Shown here one piece after another: positions 1,435 to 26,164 of a stretch of 64,000 nt of DNA. The DNA comes from Escherichia coli (GTDB lineage Bacteria > Pseudomonadota > Gammaproteobacteria > Enterobacterales > Enterobacteriaceae). How positions within the stretch are numbered: the stretch's first letter is position 1; each line of letters starts with the position of its first letter. Location: assembly GCF_001677475.2 (NCBI RefSeq), contig NZ_CP015229.1; one strand, written 5' to 3'. A model generated the notes under the pieces. That model made no database searches. It was given only the letters and a program-made list of their open reading frames with translations, and was not told the DNA's origin. Position numbers and translations under genes: made by a program.

Positions 1435-1624
1435 ACTGCAGGCGCTGCGTCAGGCGCGCCTTGATTTATTAACCGGTAAACGGGTGGTGTCTGTCCAGAA
1501 AGATGGTCGCAGAATTGAATATACGGCGGCTTCTCTGGATGAGCTTAACCGGGCGATCAATGATGCGGAGTCGGTACTGGGGACAACCCGACGTCGCCGT
1601 CGTCCGCTGGGAGTGAGGTTATGA
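1418..1624 (+). CDS. Head-tail joining protein (lambda gpW-like)
   Basis: 68 aa, same length and position as lambda W; conserved TGKRV..VQKDGRR motif; overlaps the end of the terminase gene. Confidence 0.85.
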   Translation: MVTVAELQALRQARLDLLTGKRVVSVQKDGRRIEYTAASLDELNRAINDAESVLGTTRRRRRPLGVRL

Positions 1625-3213
1625 AACGAACGCCTGTCCTGATTGATGTGAACGGTGTTCCGCTTCGTGAGAGTCTCAGCTACAACGGGGGCGGCGCAGG
1701 ATTTGGCGGGCAAATGGCGGAGTGGTTGCCACCGGCGCAGAGTGCCGATGCGGCCCTGCTGCCCGCGTTGCGTCTGGGGAATGCCCGGGCAGATGATCTG
1801 GTGCGCAATAACGGAATAGCGGCTAATGCGGTTGCCCTGCATAAGGATCACATTGTCGGGCATATGTTTCTGATCAGCTACCGTCCGAACTGGCGCTGGC
1901 TGGGGATGCGGGAGACCGCAGCAAAAAGCTTTGTCGATGAGGTGGAGGCGTCCTGGTCGGAATACGCCGAAGGGATGTTTGGCGAGATCGACGTGGAAGG
2001 AAAACGCACGTTCACGGAATTTATCCGTGAAGGTGTGGGCGTTCATGCGTTTAACGGCGAAATCTTTGTGCAGCCGGTCTGGGATACGGAAACCACGCAG
2101 TTATTCCGTACGCGTTTTAAAGCTGTGAGTCCGAAACGGGTGGACACGCCTGGACACGGTATGGGGAACCGTTTTCTGCGGGCCGGTGTGGAGGTCGATC
2201 GATATGGCCGTGCCGTCGCGTACCATATCTGTGAGGATGATTTTCCGTTCTCTGGTAGTGGACGATGGGAACGGATCCCGCGTGAACTTCCCACCGGGCG
2301 TCCGGCCATGCTGCATATTTTCGAGCCGGTGGAGGACGGGCAGACCCGTGGGGCTAATCAGTTTTACAGCGTCATGGAACGGCTGAAGATGCTCGATTCC
2401 CTGCAGGCAACACAGCTTCAGTCGGCCATAGTGAAGGCGATGTATGCAGCGACGATTGAAAGTGAACTTGATACCGAAAAGGCCTTTGAATATATCGCCG
2501 GCGCGCCACAGGAGCAGAAGGATAATCCGCTTATTAATATTCTGGAGAAGTTCTCCAGCTGGTATGACACGAATAACGTGACACTGGGCGGAGTCAAAAT
2601 TCCGCACCTTTTCCCTGGTGATGATCTGAAACTACAGACTGCGCAGGATTCAGACAATGGATTTTCTGCACTTGAACAGGCGCTGCTGCGGTATATCGCC
2701 GCCGGTCTTGGCGTTTCCTACGAACAGTTGTCCCGTGATTACTCGAAGGTCAGTTACTCAAGTGCCCGCGCCTCCGCCAATGAGTCGTGGCGCTATTTTA
2801 TGGGGCGGCGAAAATTTATTGCGGCCCGGCTGGCCACGCAGATGTTTTCCTGCTGGCTGGAAGAGGCACTTCTTCGGGGGATTATTCGTCCGCCACGGGC
2901 ACGTTTTGATTTTTATCAGGCGCGATCAGCCTGGTCACGGGCAGAGTGGATTGGTGCCGGAAGAATGGCCATTGACGGGCTCAAGGAAGTCCAGGAATCA
3001 GTGATGCGCATTGAGGCCGGACTGAGCACGTATGAGAAAGAGCTGGCGCTAATGGGCGAGGATTATCAGGACATTTTCCGCCAGCAGGTCAGGGAATCTG
3101 CAGAGCGGCAAAAAGCCGGACTCTCACGTCCGGTGTGGATATCGCAGGCGTATCAGCAGCAGATAGCGGAGAGTCGCAGGCCGGAAGAGGAGACAACACC
3201 ACGTGAGACGTAA
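1621..3213 (+). CDS. Portal protein (lambda gpB-like)
   Basis: 530 aa ORF, ATGA overlap with the preceding gene, lambda B position and size. Confidence 0.9.
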   Translation: MKRTPVLIDVNGVPLRESLSYNGGGAGFGGQMAEWLPPAQSADAALLPALRLGNARADDLVRNNGIAANAVALHKDHIVGHMFLISYRPNWRWLGMRETAAKSFVDEVEASWSEYAEGMFGEIDVEGKRTFTEFIREGVGVHAFNGEIFVQPVWDTETTQLFRTRFKAVSPKRVDTPGHGMGNRFLRAGVEVDRYGRAVAYHICEDDFPFSGSGRWERIPRELPTGRPAMLHIFEPVEDGQTRGANQFYSVMERLKMLDSLQATQLQSAIVKAMYAATIESELDTEKAFEYIAGAPQEQKDNPLINILEKFSSWYDTNNVTLGGVKIPHLFPGDDLKLQTAQDSDNGFSALEQALLRYIAAGLGVSYEQLSRDYSKVSYSSARASANESWRYFMGRRKFIAARLATQMFSCWLEEALLRGIIRPPRARFDFYQARSAWSRAEWIGAGRMAIDGLKEVQESVMRIEAGLSTYEKELALMGEDYQDIFRQQVRESAERQKAGLSRPVWISQAYQQQIAESRRPEEETTPRET

Positions 3214-4708
3214 TCTTTCACACATTATTGCCGCAGCATTCAATGAACCGCTGCTTCTGGAGCCCGCCTATGCGCGGGTTTTCTTTTGCGCGCTCGGGCG
3301 CGAGATGGGGGCAGCAAGTCTTTCGGTACCACAACAACAGGTACAGCTTGATGCTCCCGGAATGCTGGCTGAAACGGACGAGTATATGGCCGGAGGTAAA
3401 CGACCGGCCCGTGTTTACCGGGTGGTGAACGGTATTGCTGTACTGCCGGTGACCGGCACGCTGGTGCACCGGCTGGGTGGTATGCGGCCATTTTCCGGAA
3501 TGACAGGCTATGACGGCATTGTCGCCTGTCTTCAGCAGGCAATGGCGGATAGCCAGGTGCGGGGCGTACTGCTGGACATTGACAGTCCGGGCGGGCAGGC
3601 CGCCGGCGCGTTTGACTGCGCTGACATGATTTACCGCCTCCGTCAGCAGAAGCCGGTCTGGGCACTGTGCAATGACACGGCCTGTTCTGCAGCCATGCTG
3701 CTGGCGTCGGCCTGCTCCCGACGGCTGGTTACCCAGACATCCCGTATCGGCTCCATTGGCGTGATGATGAGCCATGTCAGCTATGCCGGTCATCTGGCGC
3801 AGGCCGGTGTGGATATCACGCTGATTTACTCAGGGGCGCACAAGGTGGATGGCAATCAGTTTGAAGCGTTGCCGGCAGAGGTTCGCCAGGACATGCAGCA
3901 GCGGATTGATGCGGCGCGCCGGATGTTTGCCGAAAAAGTGGCGATGTATACCGGTCTGTCTGTTGATGCCATCACGGGAACAGAGGCTGCCGTTTTTGAA
4001 GGTCAGTCCGGCATTGAGGCCGGGCTGGCGGATGAATTAATCAATGCGTCGGATGCCATCAGTGTGATGGCCACGGCGCTGAACAGTAATGTCAGAGGAG
4101 GCACTATGCCGCAATTAACTGCAACGGAAGCCGCCGCGCAGGAGAACCAGCGAGTGATGGGGAGCCTGACATGCCAGGAAGCGAAAGGACGTGAACAGCT
4201 TGCCACGATGCTGGCAGGACAACAGGGCATGAGCGTTGAACAGGCCCGGGCGATTCTGGCCGCGGCGGCACCGCAGCAGCCGGTGGCATCCACGCAGAGT
4301 GAAGCCGATCGCATTATGGCGTGTGAAGAAGCGAACGGTCGTGAACAACTGGCGGCAACGCTGGCGGCGATGCCGGAGATGACGGTGGAAAAAGCCCGCC
4401 CGATCCTGGCTGCTTCACCGCAGGCGGATGCCGGACCATCACTCCGTGATCAGATCATGGCACTGGATGAGGCAAAAGGGGCTGAGGCGCAGGCTGAACA
4501 GCTGGCTGCCTGCCCGGGAATGACAGTGGAGAGCGCCCGGGCTGTGCTGGCTGCGGGATCAGGTAAGGCAGAACCGGTCTCTGCATCCACAACCGCCATG
4601 TTTGAACATTTCATGGCGAACCATTCACCGGCAGCGGTACAGGGTGGCGTGGCACAGACGTCAGCAGACGGTGATGCGGACGTGAAAATGCTCATGGCCA
4701 TGCCATGA
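3203..4708 (+). CDS. Capsid assembly protease C with nested scaffold (Nu3-like) C-terminal region; S49/ClpP-like peptidase
   Basis: 501 aa; N-terminal half has S49 protease-like motifs (DSPGG, SAA), C-terminal half is Ala/Gln-rich scaffold-like with three tandem repeats. Confidence 0.85.
   Translation: MRRNLSHIIAAAFNEPLLLEPAYARVFFCALGREMGAASLSVPQQQVQLDAPGMLAETDEYMAGGKRPARVYRVVNGIAVLPVTGTLVHRLGGMRPFSGMTGYDGIVACLQQAMADSQVRGVLLDIDSPGGQAAGAFDCADMIYRLRQQKPVWALCNDTACSAAMLLASACSRRLVTQTSRIGSIGVMMSHVSYAGHLAQAGVDITLIYSGAHKVDGNQFEALPAEVRQDMQQRIDAARRMFAEKVAMYTGLSVDAITGTEAAVFEGQSGIEAGLADELINASDAISVMATALNSNVRGGTMPQLTATEAAAQENQRVMGSLTCQEAKGREQLATMLAGQQGMSVEQARAILAAAAPQQPVASTQSEADRIMACEEANGREQLAATLAAMPEMTVEKARPILAASPQADAGPSLRDQIMALDEAKGAEAQAEQLAACPGMTVESARAVLAAGSGKAEPVSASTTAMFEHFMANHSPAAVQGGVAQTSADGDADVKMLMAMP
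4165..4555. repeat. Three tandem ~40-45 codon in-frame repeats inside the C/Nu3 scaffold region
   Basis: Repeated peptide unit (QEAKGREQLATMLA...VEQARAILAA / EEANGREQLAATLA...VEKARPILAA / DEAKGAEAQAEQLA...VESARAVLAA) read in the ORF translation. Confidence 0.5.
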
Positions 4709-4744: not shown

Positions 4745-5092
4745 ATGGTGACGAAAACCATCACTGAACAGCGTGCGGAAGTACGTATTTTTGCCGGTAA
4801 TGATCCGGCTCATACCGCCACAGGCAGCAGCGGGATTTCTCAGGCAACACCGGCACTGACGCCCCTGATGCTGGATGAGTCTACCGGGAAACTGGTGGTC
4901 TGGGACGGACAGAAAGCCGGTAGTGCGGCTGGCATACTGGTACTGCCGCTTGAAGGCACAGAGACGGTGCTGACGTATTACAAGTCGGGAACCTTTGCGA
5001 CGGAGGCAATCCACTGGCCTGAAAGTGTGGATGAACACAAAAAGGCCAACGCCTTTGCCGGCAGTGCCCTGAGTCACGCGGCGCTGCCGTAA
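4745..5092 (+). CDS. Head decoration protein (lambda gpD-like)
   Basis: 115 aa; conserved DPAHTAT, TPLMLD, WDG and YKSGTF motifs of lambda D. Confidence 0.9.
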   Translation: MVTKTITEQRAEVRIFAGNDPAHTATGSSGISQATPALTPLMLDESTGKLVVWDGQKAGSAAGILVLPLEGTETVLTYYKSGTFATEAIHWPESVDEHKKANAFAGSALSHAALP

Positions 5093-5149: not shown

Positions 5150-6178
5150 ATGGGATTGTTTACGACCCGCCAGTTGCTCGGTTATACCGAACAAAAAGTG
5201 AAATATCGTGCGCTGTTTCTGGAGCTGTTTTTCCGCCGTACGGTGAATTTCCATACCGAAGAGGTGATGCTGGACAAAATTACCGGAAAAACGCCGGTGG
5301 CGGCCTATGTCTCCCCGGTTGTTGAAGGAAAAGTGCTGCGTCATCGTGGTGGTGAAACCCGCGTGTTGCGTCCGGGCTACGTCAAGCCGAAACACGAATT
5401 TAATTACCAGCAGGCGGTTGAGCGCCTTCCTGGTGAAGATCCATCTCAACTGAACGATCCGGCTTACCGCCGTCTGCGTATCATTACCGATAACCTCAAA
5501 CAGGAAGAGCACGCGATTGTCCAGGTGGAAGAAATGCAGGCGGTAAATGCTGTGTTGTATGGCAAATACACCATGGAAGGAGACCAGTTCGAGAAAATTG
5601 AGGTCGATTTTGGCAGGTCGACGAAGAATAACATCACACAGGGTAGCGGTAAGGAATGGTCAAAACAGGATCGTGACACGTTCGATCCTACACATGATAT
5701 TGATCTTTACTGCGACCAGGCCAGCGGTCTTGTGAATATTGCCATCATGGACGGTACCGTTTGGCGTCTGCTGAATGGTTTTAAGCTGTTTCGCGAAAAA
5801 CTGGATACCCGTCGCGGTTCAAATTCACAACTCGAAACGGCAGTGAAAGATCTGGGCGCAGTGGTGTCCTTCAAGGGGTATTACGGCGATCTGGCTATTG
5901 TTGTGGCGAAAACGTCTTATATAGCAGAAGACGGTATCGAAAAACGTTATCTTCCAGATGGCATGCTGGTCCTGGGGAATACTGCTGCAGATGGGATCCG
6001 TTGTTACGGAGCCATTCAGGATGCGCAGGCGTTGTCCGAAGGTGTGGTGGCTTCTTCCCGTTATCCGAAACACTGGCTGACGGTGGGGGATCCTGCCCGT
6101 GAATTTACCATGACGCAGTCCGCACCGCTGATGGTGTTGCCGGACCCGGATGAGTTTGTGGTGGTACAGGTGAAATAA
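5150..6178 (+). CDS. Major capsid protein (lambda gpE-like)
   Basis: 342 aa; long collinear identity blocks with lambda E (PGYVKPKHE, AIVQVEEMQAV, KLDTRRGSNS, TGDPAREFTM). Confidence 0.95.
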   Translation: MGLFTTRQLLGYTEQKVKYRALFLELFFRRTVNFHTEEVMLDKITGKTPVAAYVSPVVEGKVLRHRGGETRVLRPGYVKPKHEFNYQQAVERLPGEDPSQLNDPAYRRLRIITDNLKQEEHAIVQVEEMQAVNAVLYGKYTMEGDQFEKIEVDFGRSTKNNITQGSGKEWSKQDRDTFDPTHDIDLYCDQASGLVNIAIMDGTVWRLLNGFKLFREKLDTRRGSNSQLETAVKDLGAVVSFKGYYGDLAIVVAKTSYIAEDGIEKRYLPDGMLVLGNTAADGIRCYGAIQDAQALSEGVVASSRYPKHWLTVGDPAREFTMTQSAPLMVLPDPDEFVVVQVK

Positions 6179-14490: not shown

Positions 14491-15919
14491 ATGGGTAAAG
14501 GAAGCAGTAAGGGGCATACCCCGCGCGAAGCGAAGGACAACCTGAAGTCCACGCAGTTGCTGAGTGTGATCGATGCCATCAGCGAAGGGCCGGTTGAAGG
14601 TCCGGTGGATGGATTAAAAAGCGTGCTGCTGAACAGTACGCCGGTGCTGGACACTGAGGGGAATACCAACATCTCCGGTATCACGGTGGTGTTCCGTGCC
14701 GGTGAGCAGGAGCAGACACCGCCGGAGGGGTTTGAATCCTCCGGCTCCGAGACGGTGCTGGGTACGGAAGTGAAATATGACACGCCGATCACCCGCACCA
14801 TTACGTCTGCAAACATCGACCGTCTGCGCTTTACCTTCGGTGTACAGGCACTGGTGGAAACCACCTCAAAGGGTGACAGGAATCCGTCGGAAGTCCGTCT
14901 GCTGGTTCAGATACAACGTAACGGTGGCTGGGTGACGGAAAAAGACATCACCATTAAGGGCAAAACCACCTCGCAGTATCTGGCCTCGGTGGTGGTGGAT
15001 AACCTGCCGCCGCGCCCGTTTAATATCCGGATGCGCAGGATGACGCCGGACAGCACCACAGACCAGCTGCAGAACAAAACGCTCTGGTCGTCATACACCG
15101 AAATTATCGATGTGAAACAGGGCTACCCGAACACGGCACTGGTCGGCGTGCAGGTGGACTCGGAGCAGTTCGGCAGCCAGCAGGTGAGCCGTAATTATCA
15201 TCTGCGCGGGCGTATTCTGCAGGTGCCGTCGAATTATAACCCGCAGACGCGGCAATACAGCGGTATCTGGGACGGAACGTTTAAACCGGCATACAGCAAC
15301 AACATGGCCTGGTGTCTGTGGGATATGCTGACCCATCCGCGCTACGGCATGGGGAAACGTCTTGGTGCGGCGGATGTGGACAAATGGGCGCTGTATGTCA
15401 TCGGCCAGTACTGCGACCAGTCAGTACCGGACGGCTTTGGCGGCACGGAGCCGCGCATCACCTGTAATGCATACCTGACCACACAGCGCAAGGCGTGGGA
15501 TGTGCTCAGTGATTTCTGCTCGGCGATGCGCTGTATGCCGGTATGGAACGGGCAGACGCTGACGTTCGTGCAGGACCGACCATCAGATAAGGTGTGGACC
15601 TATAACCGCAGTAATGTGGTGATGCCGGATGATGGCGCGCCGTTCCGCTACAGCTTCAGCGCCCTGAAGGACCGCCATAATGCCGTTGAGGTGAACTGGA
15701 TTGACCCGAACAACGGCTGGGAGACGGCGACAGAGCTTGTTGAAGATACGCAGGCCATTGCCCGTTACGGTCGTAATGTCACGAAGATGGATGCCTTTGG
15801 CTGTACCAGCCGGGGGCAGGCACACCGCGCCGGGCTGTGGCTGATTAAAACGGAACTGCTGGAGACGCAGACCGTGGATTTCAGCGTGGGTGCTGAAGGG
15901 CTTCGCCATGTACCGGGTA
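14491..15919 (+). pseudogene. Tip attachment / host specificity protein J, N-terminal fragment, interrupted by an IS
   Basis: ORF 14491..15933 is collinear with lambda J through ...GLRHVPG, then runs into IS sequence and stops. Confidence 0.85.
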
Positions 15920-16010
15920 TGAGACGACAATAACTCAGTCCGCCTGGCGCCGATTATTCTGGCCGGTTTTGTAACCTGAGTGTCATTTACATGATCCAAC
16001 AGGAAATGGC

Positions 16011-17510
16011 GTGACGCTCAATACTTCTCAGGTCAGTTACTATATGACTCAGCGTAAGAAAGGTATAACTCAGCATATCTCGGCCATGAAGGCTGGTATC
16101 TCAGTCCGTTCTGGTCGTCGGATCGAAAAAGGAGAGTGGGCAAAAAACAGTGTTCGGCACTGGCGCACACGCAAAGATCCTCTGGAAGCTGTGTGGGACA
16201 GCATGCTTGTTCCTCTGTTGAAAGAGAGGCCGGCTCTGACACCAACAACTCTACTGGAGATGCTACAGGATAAATATCCCGGCCAGTACCCCAACAGCCT
16301 TCGAAGAACAATGCAACGGCGGGTTCGCGAATGGAAACTACAGTATGGTACAGAGCAGGAGGTCATGTTCCGCCAGCAACATCAGCCCGGCCTGCGAGGC
16401 CTGTCGGACTTTACTGAACTGAAAGGTGTAGTTGTCACCATCGCCGGTAAGTTGTTGGCGCATAAGTTGTATCACTTCCGTCTGGAATGGAGCCACTGGA
16501 GCTGGATGCGGGTTGTTCTGGGTGGTGAGAGCTTCTCTGCTCTGGCTGAAGGCCTGCAGGAAGCCCTCGGACAACTGGGCGGAGTGCCGGTAGAACATAA
16601 AACGGACAGCCTGAGGGCAGCATGGAAACAACAGGGCGAAGATGGACGCCGCGAGCTGACTGAGCGTTATGCTACTCTCTGTCAGCACTACGGAATGCAG
16701 GGCGTACACAATAATGCCGGTCGGGGCCACGAAAATGGCTCGGTTGAAAGTGCCCACGGACATCTGAAAAGGCGTATCTGTCAGGCGCTGATACTGCGGG
16801 GCAGTAACGACTTCAGCACCATAGAAGAATATCAGGCCTTCATCACTCAGCAGGTTATGCGGCACAACCGTAACAATCAGGATCTGGTCAAGGAAGAACG
16901 TCTTCATCTGAAACCGCTGCCGCTTCGTCGCAGTGCTGACTATGATGAGCTGACTGTGAGGGTTAGTCGCAGCAGTACCATCAATGTGAAGCACGTCGTC
17001 TACAGCGTACCTTCCCGGCTTGTAGGTCAACTGTTACGGGTCAGGTTATGGGACGATCGTCTGAGCTGTTACGTTGGCAGCAGCGAGGTCATGAGCTGCC
17101 CTCGCGTCAGACCAGAAAAAGGGAAGACGCGGGCCCGTCGTATCGACTTCCGACATGTGATCGACAGTCTGGCAAAAAAGCCCGGTGCGTTCTGCCATGC
17201 AACGCTGAGAAATGACATCCTGCCGGACGATGAATGGCGGAGGCTGTGGCGTCGCTTATGTAATCATCTGGAGCCCGATATGGCAGGAAGGCTGATGGTA
17301 CATGCCCTGAAACTGGCTGCAGGATACGACGATATCTCAGTCGTGGCAAAAGGTATGGAGCAGATGCTGAATACCCCGGGAAACGTGGATCTGCACCGGC
17401 TGATGCGCTTCCTGGGTATAAAAGAAAAGGCGTTGCCGGTAGTCAATGTGATACAGCATAACCTGAGCAGTTATGAGCAACTACTGCGTGGCAAGGGAGG
17501 TTCGCAGTGA
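16011..17510 (+). CDS. istA: IS21-family transposase IstA
   Basis: 499 aa; N-terminal HTH-like region plus DDE core; overlaps istB by 4 nt. Confidence 0.85.
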   Translation: MTLNTSQVSYYMTQRKKGITQHISAMKAGISVRSGRRIEKGEWAKNSVRHWRTRKDPLEAVWDSMLVPLLKERPALTPTTLLEMLQDKYPGQYPNSLRRTMQRRVREWKLQYGTEQEVMFRQQHQPGLRGLSDFTELKGVVVTIAGKLLAHKLYHFRLEWSHWSWMRVVLGGESFSALAEGLQEALGQLGGVPVEHKTDSLRAAWKQQGEDGRRELTERYATLCQHYGMQGVHNNAGRGHENGSVESAHGHLKRRICQALILRGSNDFSTIEEYQAFITQQVMRHNRNNQDLVKEERLHLKPLPLRRSADYDELTVRVSRSSTINVKHVVYSVPSRLVGQLLRVRLWDDRLSCYVGSSEVMSCPRVRPEKGKTRARRIDFRHVIDSLAKKPGAFCHATLRNDILPDDEWRRLWRRLCNHLEPDMAGRLMVHALKLAAGYDDISVVAKGMEQMLNTPGNVDLHRLMRFLGIKEKALPVVNVIQHNLSSYEQLLRGKGGSQ

Positions 17511-18262
17511 GCAATATCCATCACCTTGAACATAGCCTGCGTAAACTACGCCTGACACGAGTTGGAGCTGAATGGCACGCTCTGGAAAAACGAGCGCTGG
17601 CAGAAGGCTGGACACCATCGCGCTATCTTCTGACGCTATGCAATGAAGAACTCCTGTGGCGCGAGAGTGAAAAACTGCGTCGTTATAAAAAGGAGGCCCG
17701 GTTGCCAGTTGCCAAAACGCTGAGCGAATACGACTTCAGTCAGGTGCCGGAACTGAATGGAGCTCAGTTCCGGCAACTCTGTGAAACGACAGACTGGGTT
17801 GATGCAGGAGAAAACGTTCTGCTGTTCGGAGCCAGCGGGTTGGGGAAAAGCCATCTGGCGGCAGCGATCGTGGATGGCGTAGTAGGTCAGGGCTACCGGG
17901 CCCGGTTCTACAGCGCAGGAGAGCTGTTGCAGGAACTACGTAAAGCCAGAGCTCAGTTGAAACTGAATGAGCTGCTACTGAAACTGGATCGCTACCGGGT
18001 GATAGTGGTGGATGATCTTGGCTATGTCAAACGCGATAGTGCCGAAACGGGTGTGCTGTTCGAGTTAATAGCGCATCGCTATGAACGTGGGAGCCTGGTG
18101 ATAACCAGTAACCATCCGTTCAGCATGTGGGGCAGCATCTTCGTGGATGAGACTATGGCGGTGGCTGCGGCAGACAGGCTGATCCATCACGGATATATGT
18201 TCGAACTGAAAGGGGAAAGCTACAGGAAAAAGACAGCGAAGGCAGTAACAAGCGCGACTTGA
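17507..18262 (+). CDS. istB: IS21-family helper ATPase IstB
   Basis: 251 aa; Walker A GASGLGKSH and Walker B VIVVDDLGY. Confidence 0.9.
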   Translation: MSNIHHLEHSLRKLRLTRVGAEWHALEKRALAEGWTPSRYLLTLCNEELLWRESEKLRRYKKEARLPVAKTLSEYDFSQVPELNGAQFRQLCETTDWVDAGENVLLFGASGLGKSHLAAAIVDGVVGQGYRARFYSAGELLQELRKARAQLKLNELLLKLDRYRVIVVDDLGYVKRDSAETGVLFELIAHRYERGSLVITSNHPFSMWGSIFVDETMAVAAADRLIHHGYMFELKGESYRKKTAKAVTSAT

Positions 18263-18325: not shown

Positions 18326-20320
18326 TAACCGGGCGATGTCATTGAAATCTGCGATGATGACTATGCCGGTATCAGCACCGGTGGTCGCGTGCTGGCGGTG
18401 AACAGCCAGACCCGGACGCTGACGCTCGACCGTGAAATCACGCTGCCATCCTCCGGTACCACGCTGATAAGCCTGGTTGACGGAAGTGGTAATCCGGTCA
18501 GCGTGGAGGTTCAGTCCGTCACCGACGGACTTAAGGTGAAAGTGAACCGGGTTCCTGACGGCGTTGCAGAATACAGCGTGTGGGGGCTGAAGCTGCCGAC
18601 GCTGCGCCAGCGCCTGTTCCGCTGCGTGAGTATCCGTGAGAACGACGACGGCACGTATGCCATCACTGCCGTGCAGCATGTACCGGAAAAAGAAGCCATC
18701 GTGGATAACGGGGCGCACTTTGACGGCGACCAGAGCGGCACGGTGAATGGTGTCACGCCGCCAGCGGTGCAGCACCTGACCGCCGAAGTCACCGCAGACA
18801 GCGGGGAATATCAGGTGCTGGCGCGCTGGGACACGCCGAAGGTGGTGAAGGGCGTGAGCTTCCTGCTCCGTCTGACCGTAACAGCGGATGACGGCAGTGA
18901 GCGGCTGGTCAGCACGGCCCGGACGACGGAAACCACATACCGCTTCACGCAACTGGCGCTGGGGAACTACAGGCTGACAGTCCGGGCGGTAAATGCGTGG
19001 GGGCAGCAGGGCGATCCGGCGTCGGTATCGTTCCGGATTGCCGCACCGGCAGCACCGTCGAGGATTGAGCTGACGCCGGGCTATTTTCAGATAACCGCCA
19101 CGCCGCATCTTGCCGTTTATGACCCGACGGTACAGTTTGAGTTCTGGTTCTCGGAAAAGCGGATTACCGATATCAGGCAGGTTGAAACCACAGCCCGCTA
19201 TCTTGGTACGGCGCTGTACTGGATAGCCGCCAGTATCAATATCAAACCGGGCCATGATTATTACTTTTATATCCGCAGTGTGAACACCGTTGGCAAATCG
19301 GCATTCGTGGAGGGCGTCGGTCGGGCGAGCGATGATGCGGAAGGTTACCTGGATTTTTTCAAAGGCAAGATAACCGAATCCCATCTCGGTAAAGAGCTGC
19401 TGGAAAAAGTTGATTTGACGGAGGATAACGCCAGCAGACTGGATGAGTTTTCGAAAGAGTGGAAGGACGCTAACGATAAATGGAATGCCATGTGGGGCGT
19501 CAAAATTGAGCAGACCAAAGACGGCAAACATTATGTCGCGGGTATTGGCCTCAGCATGGAGGACACGGAGGAAGGCAAGCTGAGCCAGTTTCTGGTTGCC
19601 GCTAACCGTATCGCGTTTATTGACCCGGCAAACGGGAATGAAACGCCGATGTTTGTGGCGCAGGGCAACCAGATATTCATGAACGACGTGTTCCTGAAGC
19701 GCCTGACAGCCCCCACCATTACCAGCGGTGGCAGTCCTCCGGTATTTTCCCTGACATCAGACGGAAAGCTGACCGCTAAAAATGCGGATATCAGTGGTAG
19801 TGTGAATGCGAACTCAGGAACGCTCAACAATGTCACGATTAACCAGAACTGTACGATTAAGGGCATGCTGGAGGCGACTCAGGTCAGAGGTGACTTCGTT
19901 AAAGCTGTATCCAAATCATTTCCGAAACAGGCTGGTACGTGGGGTAACACGGAAACACCAAACGGGACGGTTACAGTCACCATCAGCGATGATCATAACT
20001 TTGACCGTCAAATCATTATTCCGCCCATTATCTTTAACGGAATAGCGTATAGCGATCCGGGAAGTGGTAATAACCCGGGAGGTACAAGATACACGGGTTA
20101 TGGTTTTGAAGTTCGCAAAAACGGTGTATTAATCGCATCCAGAGAAACTAAAGGGGCCATTCCCGGTAGCTACAGTGCGGTTATTGATATGCCGAGTGGC
20201 AGGGGAAGCGTCACTCTGGAGTTTAAGGTTTTCCATAAAGGCAATCAGTGGGCAGGTAATATCACCGACTGTACGGTGATTGTGACCAAAAAAGCCGCTT
20301 CCGGCATCAGTATTCGTTGA
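18326..20320 (+). pseudogene. Tip attachment / host specificity protein J, C-terminal fragment
   Basis: Frame continues the lambda J sequence ([13 protein letters not shown]...) directly after the IS; ORF 18389..20320 covers most of it. Confidence 0.85.
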
Positions 20321-21053: not shown

Positions 21054-23993
21054 ATGGCAGTAAAGATTTCAGGTGTACTGAAAGACGGCACAGGAAAACC
21101 GGTACAGAACTGCACAATCCAGCTGAAAGCAAAACGTAACAGCACCACGGTGGTGGTGAACACGCTGGCCTCAGAAAATCCGGATGAAGCCGGGCGTTAT
21201 AGCATGGACGTTGAGTACGGTCAGTACAGCGTTATTCTGTTGGTGGAAGGATGCCCGCCGTCACATGCCGGGACCATCACCGTGTATGAAGATTCCCGAC
21301 CCGGTACGCTGAATGATTTTCTCGGTGCCATGACGGAGGATGATGCCCGTCCGGAGGCTCTGCGCCGTTTTGAACTGATGGTGGAAGAGGTGGCGCGTAA
21401 CGCGTCCGCGGTGGCACAGAACACGGCAGCCGCGAAGAAGTCAGCCGGCGATGCCGGCACATCTGCCCGTGAGGCGGCAACCCATGCGACTGATGCTGCA
21501 GATTCAGCACGTGCAGCCAGCACGTCAGCCGGACAGGCCGCGACGTCAGCTCAGGAGGCTTTTTCCTGCGCAGGAACGGCATCAGCAAAAGCCTCTGAGG
21601 CATCAAAAAGTGCTGCCGCTGCAGAGTCCTCAAAAAGCGCGGCGGCCACCAGTGCCGGTGCCGCGAAAACGTCTGAAACGAATGCTGCAGCGTCACAACA
21701 ATCAGCAGCCACTTCTGCATCCACCGCGACCACGAAAGCGTCAGAAGCTGCCACCTCAGCCCGGGATGCGTCGGCTTCAAAAGAGGCGGCAAAATCATCA
21801 GAAACGAGCGCAGCCTCGAGCGCAAGTAGTTCCGCTTCCTCGGCAACAGCGGCAGCAAATTCTGCGAAGGCGGCAAAAACGTCCGAGACGAACGCCAGGT
21901 CTTCTGAAACGGCAGCGGAACAGAGCGCCTCAGCTGCGGCAGGTTCAGAAACTACCGCTGCATCATCAGCCCGTGAGGCGTCAGTCAAAGCGGAGGAGGC
22001 TGCAGCCAGTGCCACTGCCGCCGGAAAATCGGCAGAAAGCGCCGCATCATCCGCTTCAACAGCCACAACGAAGGCTGGCGAAGCCACTGAACAGGCCAGC
22101 GCAGCAGCGAGGTCAGCTTCCGCAGCGAAGACATCCGAAACGAACGCGAAAGCGTCGGAAACCAGCGCAGAATCCTCAAAAACGGCTGCCGCATCGTCCG
22201 CCAGTTCGGCGGCGTCATCGGCCTCATCGGCGTCTGCTTCAAAAGATGAGGCGACCAGACAAGCGTCAGCAGCGAAGGGCAGCGCCACGACGGCATCCAC
22301 GAAGGCAACAGAGGCTGCTGGCAGTGCGACGGCGGCAGCACAGAGCAAAAGTACGGCGGAATCCGCGGCAACGCGCGCCGAGACAGCGGCAAAACGGGCA
22401 GAGGATATTGCATCCGCCGTGGCGCTTGAGGATGCGAGCACGACGAAAAAGGGGATAGTACAGCTCAGCAGTGCGACCAACAGCACTTCCGAGTCACAGG
22501 CGGCAACGCCAAAGGCAGTAAAAGCAGCCAATGACAATGCTGAGAAACGTCTGCAGAAAGATCAGAACGGTGCGGATATCCCTGGCAAAGACACCTTTAC
22601 GAAAAATATTGGTGCCTGCCGTGCCTTCGGTGGGTCAGTAAGCACAACAACAGGAAACTGGACGACTGCACAGTTTATCGAGTGGCTGGATTCTCAGGGA
22701 GCATTTAACCATCCATACTGGATGTGCAAGGGTTCCTGGTCTTATGGCAATAATAAAATCATTACTGATACTGGCTGCGGTAATATTCATCTCGCCGGAG
22801 CTGTCATTGAAGTAATGGGGATAAAGTCAGCGATGACGATCCGCATTACCACTCCGACTACATCCAGCGGTGGCGGAACAACCAACGCCCAGTTTACCTA
22901 TATTAATCACGGAACAGATTATTCACCTGGCTGGCGAAGGGACTATAACTCCAGAAATAAGCCAACGGCATCAGAGATCGGGGCGCTACCGTCAGGTGGA
23001 ACAGCAGTATCATCAGTTAATCTGGCTTCAAAAGGTCGGGTAGCCGCGCTGACAGACAATACGCAGGGGGCAGCAGGTCTTGAGTTATACGAGGTGTATA
23101 ACAACGGATATCCAACAGCGTATGGAAATATCATTCACCTGAAAGGGATGACAGCCGTTGGCGAAGGTGAGTTACTCATCGGCTGGAGTGGTACAAGCGG
23201 TGCTCATGCTCCGGCATTTATTCGTTCACGACGGGATACGACCGACGCAAACTGGTCGCCGTGGGCGCAGCTTTACACCTCGGCTCATCCTCCTGCAGAG
23301 TTTTATCCAGTCGGTGCACCAATCCCGTGGCCATCAGATACCGTTCCGTCTGGCTATGCCCTGATGCAGGGGCAGACTTTTGACAAATCTGCATACCCGA
23401 AACTTGCAGCGGCTTATCCGTCAGGCGTTATTCCTGATATGCGTGGCTGGACGATTAAGGGCAAGCCCGCCAGTGGTCGTGCCGTATTGTCTCAGGAACA
23501 GGACGGCATTAAATCGCACACCCACAGCGCCAGCGCATCCAGTACGGATTTGGGGACGAAAACCACATCGTCGTTTGATTACGGCACTAAATCCACGAAT
23601 AACACCGGTGCGCATACCCATAGTTTAAGTGGCAGCACGAATGCGGCTGGTAATCACAGCCATAGAGATGGCCGTCGATTTAACCCCAGTGTTTTTAAAG
23701 ATACTTATCAATATGGTTATACAAGCTCAGGTCAAAATACCTGGGGGGTACAAGGCTCAGTAGGTATGTCTACGGGGTGGTTAGCTAATACCAGTACAGA
23801 TGGTAATCATAGCCACTCACTGTCCGGTACAGCAGTATCTGCAGGTGCACACGCGCATACTGTCGGTATTGGTGCTCATACGCACTCCGTTGCGATAGGG
23901 TCACATGGACACACCATCACCGTTAACGCTGCTGGTAACGCGGAAAACACCGTCAAAAACATCGCATTTAACTATATTGTGAGGCTTGCATGA
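21054..23993 (+). CDS. stf: Side tail fibre protein Stf-like
   Basis: 979 aa; N-terminus matches the lambda Stf N-terminal domain; long Ala/Ser/Thr-rich repeat shaft; C-terminal His-x-His repeats. Confidence 0.9.
21380..22450. repeat. Low-complexity Ala/Ser/Thr/Glu-rich repeat region inside stf
   Basis: Roughly 350 codons of degenerate SAA/TSE/AAK repeats; GC-rich and free of stops in several frames. Confidence 0.6.
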
Positions 23994-24892
23994 TTACGCT
24001 CATTCTTTCTGCACCAGTAACAGAAATGGCTGAAGCATTTAAGCGGGTATTCGCAAATGCAGATAATGTGAATATTGTCGGAAAGCCATTTGAAACAATC
24101 AGGGAATTTGACTGCATGGTAAGTGCGGCAAACAGTTTCGGCCTGATGGATGGCGGTGTTGATGCCGCCATTACCGCATTCTTCGGTACTCAGTTACAGT
24201 CCCGCGTTCAGAATCATATTCTTCGTGAATATCTCGGCGAGCAGCCTGTAGGTTCTGCATTTGTTATTGAAACGGGGCATAATCATCATCCCTGGCTGGT
24301 ACATGCGCCAACAATGCGTGTTCCGCTGACAATTGACGGAACAGACGCTGTATATAACGCAACCTGGGCCGCTCTGCTTGCCATCTTTCAGCACAATAAA
24401 CACGCAACGACAGACAGGAAAATAAAAACGGTGGTATTCCCTGCAATGGGAGCCGGATGTGGTCAGGTGCCGTTTGAAAGTGTTGCCCGGCAGATGAAGC
24501 AGGCATGGGATAACTTTAATAAAAAAACAGAATCAATTAACTGGGAATACGCACAATCCCGCCAGTCGGCAGTATTTGGCACATATGCATACTGTCCGGG
24601 TAATTCTGTTTGCCGTTATGCGGATACTAAATATATTGGATGCGGCGATTATCGGACGTATTGCTCACGTTCCGGGCAGGTCTGTATTAACCCTGAACAT
24701 CAGGCTGATGATGTACTGATACAACATCAGGCTAATAACCGGTTTCGCCCTGGTTCGCATATACACCGGATTAATCCAGAAAATCCCGTAGGTAATGTCA
24801 TCTCTGGCGCACATAGCCACGGAAGTAGCATCGTTATTGGTGCTCACACCCATACGCTCAATAAACAATATTCTGTCTCTGATATTAAGTAG
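23990..24892 (+). CDS. Protein with macrodomain-like N-terminus (putative ADP-ribose binding/hydrolase) and Cys/His-rich fibre-tip-like C-terminus
   Basis: 300 aa; start overlaps the stf stop (ATGA); motifs [18 protein letters not shown] and [12 protein letters not shown] resemble the two macrodomain signature blocks; C-terminal GSHIH, GAHSHG, GAHTHT repeats. Confidence 0.6.
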
Positions 24893-24900
24893 AGGTGAAC

Positions 24901-25476
24901 ATGGATTTCAGAATGAGTGAACAACCACGGACCATAACAATTTATAATCTGCTGGCCGGAACTAATGAATTTATTGGTGAAGGTGATGCATATATTCCGC
25001 CTCATACAGGTCTGCCAGCAAACAGTACCGATATTGCACCGCCAGATATTCCGGCTGGCTTTGTGGCTGTTTTCAACAGTGATGAGGCATCGTGGCATCT
25101 CGTTGAAGACCATCGGGGTAAAACCGTCTATGACGTGGCTTCCGGCGACGCGTTATTTATTTCTGAACTTGGCCCATTACCGGAAAATGTCACTTGGTTA
25201 TCCCCGGAAGGGGAGTTTCAGAAGTGGAACGGCACAGCCTGGGTGAAGGATACGGAAGCAGAAAAACTGTTCCGGATCCGGGAGGCGGAAGAAACAAAAA
25301 ACAACCTGATGCAGGTAGCCAGTGAGCATATTGCGCCGCTTCAGGATGCTGCAGATCTGGAAATTGCAACGGAGGAAGAAATCTCGTTGCTGGAAGCATG
25401 GAAAAAGTATCGGGTATTGCTGAACCGTGTTGATACGTCAACTGCACAGGATATTGAATGGCCAGCACTGCCGTAG
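24901..25476 (+). CDS. tfa: Tail fibre assembly protein Tfa-like
   Basis: Collinear with lambda Tfa ([75 protein letters not shown]...). Confidence 0.9.
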
Positions 25477-25573: not shown

Positions 25574-26164
25574 TTATATGTCAGGTGTCTGAAGTTTTGC
25601 TTTGGCTCTTAAAATGGTTTGCCGCGAGGTTTTGAATTCCCGGGCAATGGCACTTATACTTACACCTGACTTAATTCGTTCGAATACCACCTGTTTCTGT
25701 TCTTCATTTAACACAGGTGGTCGACCAAAACGTTTCCCTGCGCCCCGGGCTCTTACTATCCCGGAATGAGTGCGTTCAAGTAAAAGGTCTCGTTCAAATT
25801 CAGCGACTGCTGAAATTACTTGCATCATCATTTTTCCTGTTGGACTGGTCAGGTCAATGCCCCCCAATGCTAAGCAATGCACTCTGATACCTGTTTCGGT
25901 CAGTTGTTCCACTGTTTTCCTGATATCCATTGCATTACAACCAAGGCGATCCAGTTTTGTCACAATCAATTGATCACCACATTTCAGGCGAGCAAGCAAC
26001 CGGTTAAAACCAGGACGCTCACTGGTTGCTGCTGAGCCGCTAATGTGTTCTTCGATTATTTGCTGAGGTTTGATTTTAAAACCTGCACTTTCGATTTCCC
26101 GGCGTTGATTTTCGGGGGTCTGATCCAGCGTTGATATCCGACAGTAAGCAAAAATTCGAGACAT
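25574..26164 (-). CDS. Small serine recombinase (resolvase/invertase family)
   Basis: 196 aa; N-terminal catalytic block YCRISTLDQ (Ser nucleophile), [11 protein letters not shown]-terminal HTH. Confidence 0.85.

Follow-up and report, generated by a model that had tools for sequence, protein, structure and literature searches.

What are three tandem repeats doing in the scaffold part of a lambda-type head gene, and how long have they been there? The question is raised by the open reading frame (ORF) at positions 3203-4708 of a stretch of Escherichia coli DNA of 64,000 nucleotides (nt) (assembly GCF_001677475.2, contig NZ_CP015229.1; hereafter, the window), which is homologous to the protease/scaffold genes of phages 21 and lambda. 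A reading of the sequence alone had noticed, in the encoded protein's C-terminal part, three consecutive units of about 40-45 amino acids (aa), which it did not associate with lambda Nu3 and which it thought might alter the stoichiometry or length of the scaffold. Here, we describe these units as an ancient triplication of a module that is predicted to fold into three helices. We infer, with moderate confidence, that the likeliest role of this module is that of a protein-interaction module of the transient scaffold.

Three tandem units in the scaffold part of the gene

Three consecutive tandem units were confirmed in the C-terminal scaffold part of the protein, all encoded on the plus strand: unit 1 at 4142-4276 (aa 314-358), unit 2 at 4301-4423 (aa 367-407), and unit 3 at 4442-4567 (aa 414-455). 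The span first noticed, 4165-4555, falls within these limits (4142-4567). A hidden Markov model (HMM) built from the three units scored them at 82, 84, and 82.5 bits, respectively. The pattern given by the sequence-only reading was correct: an acidic or polar start is followed by an R-I-M helix, EA-x-G-R-E, LA-x-x-LA, and P-G-M-T-V-E-x-A-R-x-I-L-A-A, with the GRE of this pattern reading GAE in unit 3. The three-way alignment of the units contained 16 invariant columns, and the near-invariant residues of the unit were I, E-A, G-R, A, L-A, A, and L. Local scores between pairs of units ranged from 79 to 98, versus 23-25 ± 4-5 for shuffles that preserve composition (z = 10.7-17); the similarity of the units therefore extends beyond their Ala-rich composition.

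At the nucleotide level, identity between the unit cores was only 57-67%. Third codon positions differed between units at 19-20 of the 32 codons, and first and second positions at 6-12. Tandem Repeats Finder (TRF) reported no tandem repeat in this region, and an exact-seed search for DNA repeats in the same region returned just short, weak matches. The repeat is old and resides at the protein level; it is not a recent DNA tandem repeat. Nor does it resemble a hypervariable, variable-number tandem repeat, given the low nucleotide identity between copies, the empty TRF output, and a length that is stable in E. coli.

Because an internal ribosome-binding site (RBS) and the ATG at 4106 are both situated upstream of the repeat, it is encoded in both the full-length protease and a nested scaffold. 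The internal Shine-Dalgarno sequence, GAGGAGG (4095-4101, plus strand), is encoded by conserved Gly-Gly codons and precedes an in-frame scaffold gene at 4106-4708 (plus strand, ATG start, 200 aa), which is a homolog of phage 21 gene 6 and of lambda Nu3. The same RBS and nested coding sequence are annotated in the two phage 21 records, M81255 (head operon) and OL657228 (complete genome), the latter labelling the pair 'capsid protease/scaffolding protein' and 'scaffolding protein'. The GG-x-M motif at the nested start is kept in homologs, including those of Salmonella, and three stretches of the nested gene product matched the PHROG 8399 family of head scaffolding proteins. By homology, the RBS and the ATG at 4106 constitute the classic nested arrangement of lambda C/Nu3. 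From the 99.6% identity to phage 21 and the homology to lambda, we infer that the nested product is needed in prohead assembly and portal incorporation and is then degraded, as is known of lambda Nu3 (PMC3224144).

In unit 1, the codon at 4163-4165, which is codon 20 of the nested gene, encodes Ser instead of a near-invariant core Ile (I20S). The Ile was present in phage 21 and in all aligned homologs, and the exact 61-mer around the substitution was found in 5 of 1857 matching E. coli records. This fits the view that selection has been relaxed in a prophage undergoing decay.

Correspondence with the Tri boxes of phage 21

The GenBank record M81255 of the phage 21 head operon, which dates from the 1990s, annotates three repeat regions in gene 6, named 'Tri1 box', 'Tri box', and 'Tri3 box'. 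These boxes mapped one-to-one (offset +202) to window positions 4173-4276 within unit 1, 4313-4423 within unit 2, and 4454-4567 within unit 3, and their ends coincided exactly with those of our units, which had been defined independently by HMM. The triple repeat is thus real but not new, because M81255 already annotates it at the same positions; it has been known as the Tri boxes of phage 21 since the early 1990s, about thirty years. Searches of a literature collection found neither the original paper on the phage 21 head genes nor any text on the Tri boxes.

OL657228 also annotates two 'CII binding sites' on the minus strand of the scaffold gene, which correspond to window positions 4111-4124 and 4345-4358, the second lying in unit 2. 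Both are matches to the simple pattern TTGYN6TTGY, and we saw no supporting evidence for them.

Copy number in relatives

As the sequence-only reading suspected, the repeat is absent from lambda, which carries a single unit (aa 357-400 of lambda C; 57 bits with the unit HMM). Among relatives, the number of units varies, with forms of one, two, three, and four copies. The suggested effect on length was also borne out: the protease has 501 aa versus 439 aa in lambda, and the nested scaffold 200 aa versus 131 aa, the lambda figure of 131 aa assuming a start at the homologous, RBS-preceded Met. In lambda, this Met follows an AGGAGGG by 5 nt, an RBS that is encoded by the Gly-Gly codons conserved in all homologs, and is homologous to the start of phage 21 gene 6. 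The RefSeq lambda record (NC_001416) gives nu3 as a protein of 201 aa whose first Met is within the protease domain; the gene-6-homologous Met lies 210 nt downstream of that start (2333 versus 2543; 5132 versus 5342 in the record). In this comparison, the shorter product of 131 aa looks like the true gene-6 homolog.

The alignment of the window's protein with lambda C by BLASTP stopped just past unit 1, and their tails could not be aligned by this program. In lambda, a Ser/Thr/Asp-rich spacer of about 61 aa precedes the single unit, whereas the three-unit proteins have a spacer of 22 aa. More generally, the spacer between the protease domain and the first unit was 22 aa in three-copy proteins; in single-copy proteins, it ranged from 34 to 107 aa, with 61 aa as the median. 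The distance from the end of the protease domain to the end of the last unit was 158 aa in three-copy and 100 aa in single-copy proteins. Long acidic spacers of low complexity were also seen in distant single-copy homologs.

To describe the spread of the unit, we searched 1.84 billion representative proteins with its profile and obtained 1006 clusters (50% identity) with a unit at E ≤ 1e-3. Among the best 150 matches, 144 proteins were newly retrieved; 130 of these carried a single copy and 14 showed two or three matches, several of the latter being fragments. About half of the proteins retrieved in this set were S49 fusions of 400-550 aa, the remainder consisting of short scaffold-only ORFs or fragments. 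In its 58 full-length S49 fusions, the last unit ended a median of 50 aa from the C-terminus, and a tail of about 50 aa followed the last unit in nearly all homologs. The sequence-only reading had allowed that the units might prove to be one universal, conserved domain; the unit is indeed widely conserved and normally single, but it is truly triplicated here. Independent duplications were found in distant lineages (for example, P0195, P0118, and P0229).

In a phage genome collection, the three-unit form was found in 20 records, and about 90 records matched by a single short stretch, which was about one unit long in most; the latter comprised lambda, 434, HK630, phi80, HK225, N15, mEp237, and an Aeromonas phage, among others. 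The unit was conserved far better across lineages than the tail, and no other element in the scaffold portion of head protease/scaffold proteins of the lambda type is as well conserved. No model in Pfam or NCBIfam covered it, with weak matches to HHH and DUF7178 falling below threshold; PHROGs place it just in whole-protein families (53 and 8399), with no model specific to the unit; and a sequence search of the PDB matched the protease domain to SppA and ClpP only and gave no match to the scaffold part.

A four-unit form was observed in an E. coli prophage protein of 538 aa (WP_096934546.1), found for example in STEC309. It shares with the window the head module, the gene order, the unit, and the internal RBS and ATG; its four units recur with a regular period of 46 aa and share 75-80% nt identity, which points to a younger or homogenised amplification. 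The STEC309 gene lies at positions 598-2214 of its locus (NZ_CP041435.1) and represents a third type of E. coli lambdoid head module. About 104 complete E. coli genomes carried the four-unit lineage, whereas about 1864 had the three-unit type.

In addition, we observed rare 21-type variants with two units and hybrid junctions; P0018 and P0022 are two-unit forms, and in P0022 unit 1 joins directly to the end of unit 2. Such junctions bear the mark of unequal recombination. A deletion of 19 aa within unit 2 was observed in a further rare variant (E. coli O102:H6, AB6N08_RS00910). Two- and four-unit variants were spotted in a word-indexed homolog search dominated by gene fragments, which is not a census. 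In complete E. coli genomes, the three-unit form is highly stable: the three-copy region was at least 80% covered in 1864 of the 1869 genomes with a match, and 58 out of 60 sampled rows covered either the whole query or everything except its final 2-3 bases.

Age of the triplication and selection on the copies

The Salmonella homolog of lambda gpC, STM2605 of Gifsy-1 (498 aa), has three units in the same order, preceded by the same spacer of 22 aa, and its units are positional orthologs of those in the window. Its scaffold part is only about 54% identical, its unit 3 retains G-R-E, and its tail runs past the L-L-M-S-I-P motif. In the comparison with Salmonella homologs, identity between units at the same position was 82% for unit 1, 76% for unit 2, and 66% for unit 3, compared with 51-61% between units within the protein. 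The units are closer to their Salmonella counterparts than to their neighbours, which indicates that the triplication predates the split of the two lineages and that it is, on this comparison, ancient.

Among E. coli alleles about 9% divergent, dN/dS (the ratio of nonsynonymous to synonymous substitution rates) lay between 0.10 and 0.43 in each unit and between 0.17 and 0.30 in the tail, values showing that all three copies are maintained by purifying selection. In the second half of unit 3 (4500-4570), dS was 0.87, versus about 0.1 elsewhere in the gene. This segment was divergent in some E. coli and phage alleles (CP55_Sichuan and PhiR5_1), which read AAFPGMTVEAARDILSSSPDK versus AACPGMTVESARAVLAAGSGK; the comparison indicates a recombined mosaic allele inside the repeat.

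Predicted fold and proposed role

We used AlphaFold to model unit 2 alone (alignment of 75 sequences) and the whole scaffold (gp6). The isolated unit was predicted as three helices (pLDDT 85, pTM 0.64). The whole protein showed the same helices in each unit, with a pTM of 0.25, so that no fixed packing between units is predicted. According to these models, each unit would fold as an independent mini-domain of three helices.

The tail, which follows at 4568-4705 (plus strand), is acidic and about 46 aa long, with a predicted helix (AMFEHFMANH) and a terminal motif D-x-x-MLMAMP. In gp6, AlphaFold placed a helix at residues 160-173, within the tail, and F166 and M170 were conserved in the homolog alignment.

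In the arrangement that we propose, each module would consist of a short helix (R-I-M-A), a turn (E-A-x-G-R-E), a second helix (L-A-x-x-L-A), a loop (P-G-M-T), and a third helix (V-E-x-A-R-x-I-L-A-A). Three such modules of about 42 residues would form a string of independently folding beads, with short Pro/Gln/Ala-rich linkers between them and the acidic tail of about 46 residues behind the last. They would occur both in the S49 protease of full length (gp5 type) and in the nested scaffold (gp6/Nu3 type), which is abundant. Each module would offer the transient scaffold a site of weak contact between proteins, mediating self-association and the co-assembly of protease with scaffold, and/or contact with the capsid protein, on its basic inner face, or with the portal. 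The three copies would form a trivalent chain, about 60 residues longer than that of lambda and about 58 residues longer between protease domain and tail, in which the extra units would replace most of the disordered spacer of single-copy relatives. Once the prohead is assembled, the protease would degrade the scaffold. The lambda scaffold is degraded by the C protease.

That the units are contact modules is suggested, first, by lambda itself. The 131-aa protein starting at the gene-6-homologous Met has nothing but a low-complexity spacer, one unit, and the tail; this small protein self-associates, binds C and E, and is required for portal incorporation; the Nu3-Nu3, Nu3-C, and Nu3-E interactions are listed from yeast two-hybrid assays and the literature (PMC3224144). 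Secondly, the unit outlasts the tail in conservation, which would fit a conserved partner, whether the unit itself, the protease, or the portal; the variable tail would be left free to track the capsid protein. Thirdly, the scaffold is acidic, with a computed net charge of -11, whereas the capsid protein is basic (+7) over its first 90 residues.

Several points weigh against this interpretation. Lambda gpNu3 is reportedly intrinsically disordered, as stated in a published title, and the mini-domain may thus be marginally stable or fold on binding. The near-invariant residues look mostly structural, and a conserved binding surface was not identified. Moreover, the conserved Arg is missing from unit 3 and the core Ile from unit 1 of the window; some copies may be less than fully functional. 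In M81255, the Tri boxes carry the note 'function unknown; putative'. Both the binding role presumed for the unit and its fold, which comes from AlphaFold only, should be read with these points in mind.

A more specific proposal, which we put forward tentatively, is that the unit, an uncurated and widely conserved scaffold domain, is a weakly self-associating 'sticker', and that its recurrent tandem amplification (1-4 copies, independently in several lineages) tunes the valency with which a scaffold that is disordered apart from these units and the protease tethered to it co-assemble in the procapsid. If this were true, the homologs would provide a graded set of natural valencies in which the working of lambda-type scaffolds could be tested.

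The units might instead form a structured spacer or tether, in which the extra copies have no partner of their own and serve only to fix how far the protease domain, or the N-terminal end of the scaffold, stands from the capsid-binding tail, a role that falls to the long, acidic, disordered spacer in single-copy relatives. The short spacer of three-copy proteins (22 aa, as against 34-107 aa with a median of 61 aa in single-copy proteins), the long low-complexity spacers of distant single-copy homologs, and the absence of inter-unit packing from the whole-protein model are in line with this idea. However, E-A-x-G-R-E and the helix pattern are kept across the 1006 clusters, which would be unexpected of a pure spacer; dN/dS is 0.1-0.4 in each copy; and compensation in length is just partial (158 aa versus 100 aa from the end of the protease domain to the end of the last unit). 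We therefore regard a purely spacing role as rather unlikely.

It is improbable that the units are repeated recognition or degradation signals, each providing a cleavage site through which the S49 protease clears the scaffold from the prohead. The lambda scaffold does undergo such degradation, and the linkers between units are rich in Ala, Pro, and Gln, like typical substrates of SppA-type proteases; nevertheless, the conserved residues lie within predicted helices rather than in the linkers, and the single-copy scaffold of lambda is cleared just as well. The interaction of the lambda scaffold with the C protease is listed in PMC3224144.

Still less credible are nucleic-acid-binding modules of the helix-hairpin-helix (HhH) type, with helices 2 and 3 and the P-G-M-T loop contacting DNA non-specifically: the Pfam HHH model (PF00633) matched only unit 3, at 13-15 bits versus a cut-off of 24, the loop has a single Gly instead of a G-h-G hairpin, and the protein is acidic. 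Finally, a chance resemblance in Ala/Glu/Gln-rich sequence of low complexity, or a DNA-level element such as binding sites or a slippage repeat, would agree with the Ala-rich composition, the negative TRF result, and the 'CII binding sites' annotated on the opposite strand, but is refuted by the shuffles (z = 10.7-17), the match to the lambda copy at 57 bits, the 1006 clusters elsewhere, and the concentration of inter-unit differences at third codon positions, to which are added the stable length in 1864/1869 genomes and the mere pattern-match nature of the CII sites.

We also considered control of capsid size by copy number, which is unlikely because the capsid proteins of the one-, three-, and four-unit types are all of the same length (341-342 aa).

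Beyond the earlier annotation of the Tri boxes, what the present census adds is that the unit is normally single, that its triplication here is ancient, and that it occurs in two or four copies elsewhere. A well-conserved scaffold module is still without a curated family or a solved structure. The lambda initiator complex has been called 'ill-defined' (PMC3224144), and the natural forms with one, two, three, and four copies, whose capsid proteins have the same length in the types compared above, are a ready series for asking what the parts of Nu3-type scaffolds contact.

Gene context and other prophage features

The window begins with the late genes, those for head and tail, of a lambdoid prophage. 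The prohead protease/scaffold gene (3203-4708, plus strand, GTG start, 501 aa) is a homolog of phage 21 gene 5, with 99.6% nt identity over the whole gene, and of lambda C, with 53% aa identity. It has the placement expected of the lambda type: upstream lies a lambda-family portal gene (1621-3213; Pfam Phage_portal_2, E = 1e-99), and downstream lie genes for a D-like decoration protein (4745-5092; HDPD, E = 7e-25) and for an E-like major capsid protein (5150-6178; Phage_cap_E, E = 7e-64).

The N-terminal two-thirds of the protein corresponds to the peptidase S49 part, and an SppA/ClpP-like S49 domain was identified at 3638-4081, plus strand (aa 146-293; PF01343, E = 5e-35, 121 bits versus a cut-off of 24.9). 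The SppA structures 3rst and 4kwb matched this domain in the PDB sequence search (E about 1e-16), Ser162 aligned with the nucleophile Ser of SppA and with Ser166 of lambda C, and PHROG 53, a head maturation protease family, matched the ORF with E = 1e-227. By homology and gene order, the ORF is a lambda C/Nu3-type protease/scaffold gene of a phage-21-type prophage.

Further downstream, the tail-tip gene J was found to be split into an N-terminal part (14491-15933; FNIII-A_GpJ and Phage-tail_3) and a C-terminal part (18389-20320; Ig_J, Phage_Tail_Tip, and Ig_GpJ_C). The interruption is due to an element of the IS21 family, comprising a transposase-like ORF of 499 aa (16011-17510) and IstB (17507-18262; PF01695, E = 9e-62). 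Since J is interrupted, the prophage is probably defective. A macro-domain protein of 300 aa (23990-24892; PF01661, E = 8e-19) occupies an unusual position for cargo, flanked by the side tail-fibre gene (21054-23993) and the gene for tail-fibre assembly (24895-25476). The latter is followed by a Pin-like resolvase/invertase on the minus strand (25574-26164).

Comparison with known systems

The closest known system is that of phage 21, whose genes 5 and 6 (M81255 and OL657228) are like the locus described here in the nested gene, the RBS, and the three repeats. The scaffold part of the window differs from that of phage 21 by two amino acids, I20S in unit 1 and V72A in unit 2, and, unlike phage 21, the gene resides in a prophage whose gene J is interrupted by an IS21-family element. 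Lambda C/Nu3 matches in gene order, S49 domain, internal RBS and Met, the conserved unit, and a tail of about 40-50 aa.

Outside this group, a functional analogy may be drawn with the scaffolding protein gp8 of phage P22. Its C-terminal, coat-binding helix-turn-helix domain is likewise a small helical element of a transient internal scaffold, and this element, like the scaffold ends of 80alpha and phi29, is reported to make weak, multivalent contacts in procapsid assembly. Between the unit and the gp8 element, there was no match in sequence or fold. The P22 element is basic, present in a single copy, and located at the extreme C-terminus, whereas the units described here are acidic to neutral, internal, and repeated.

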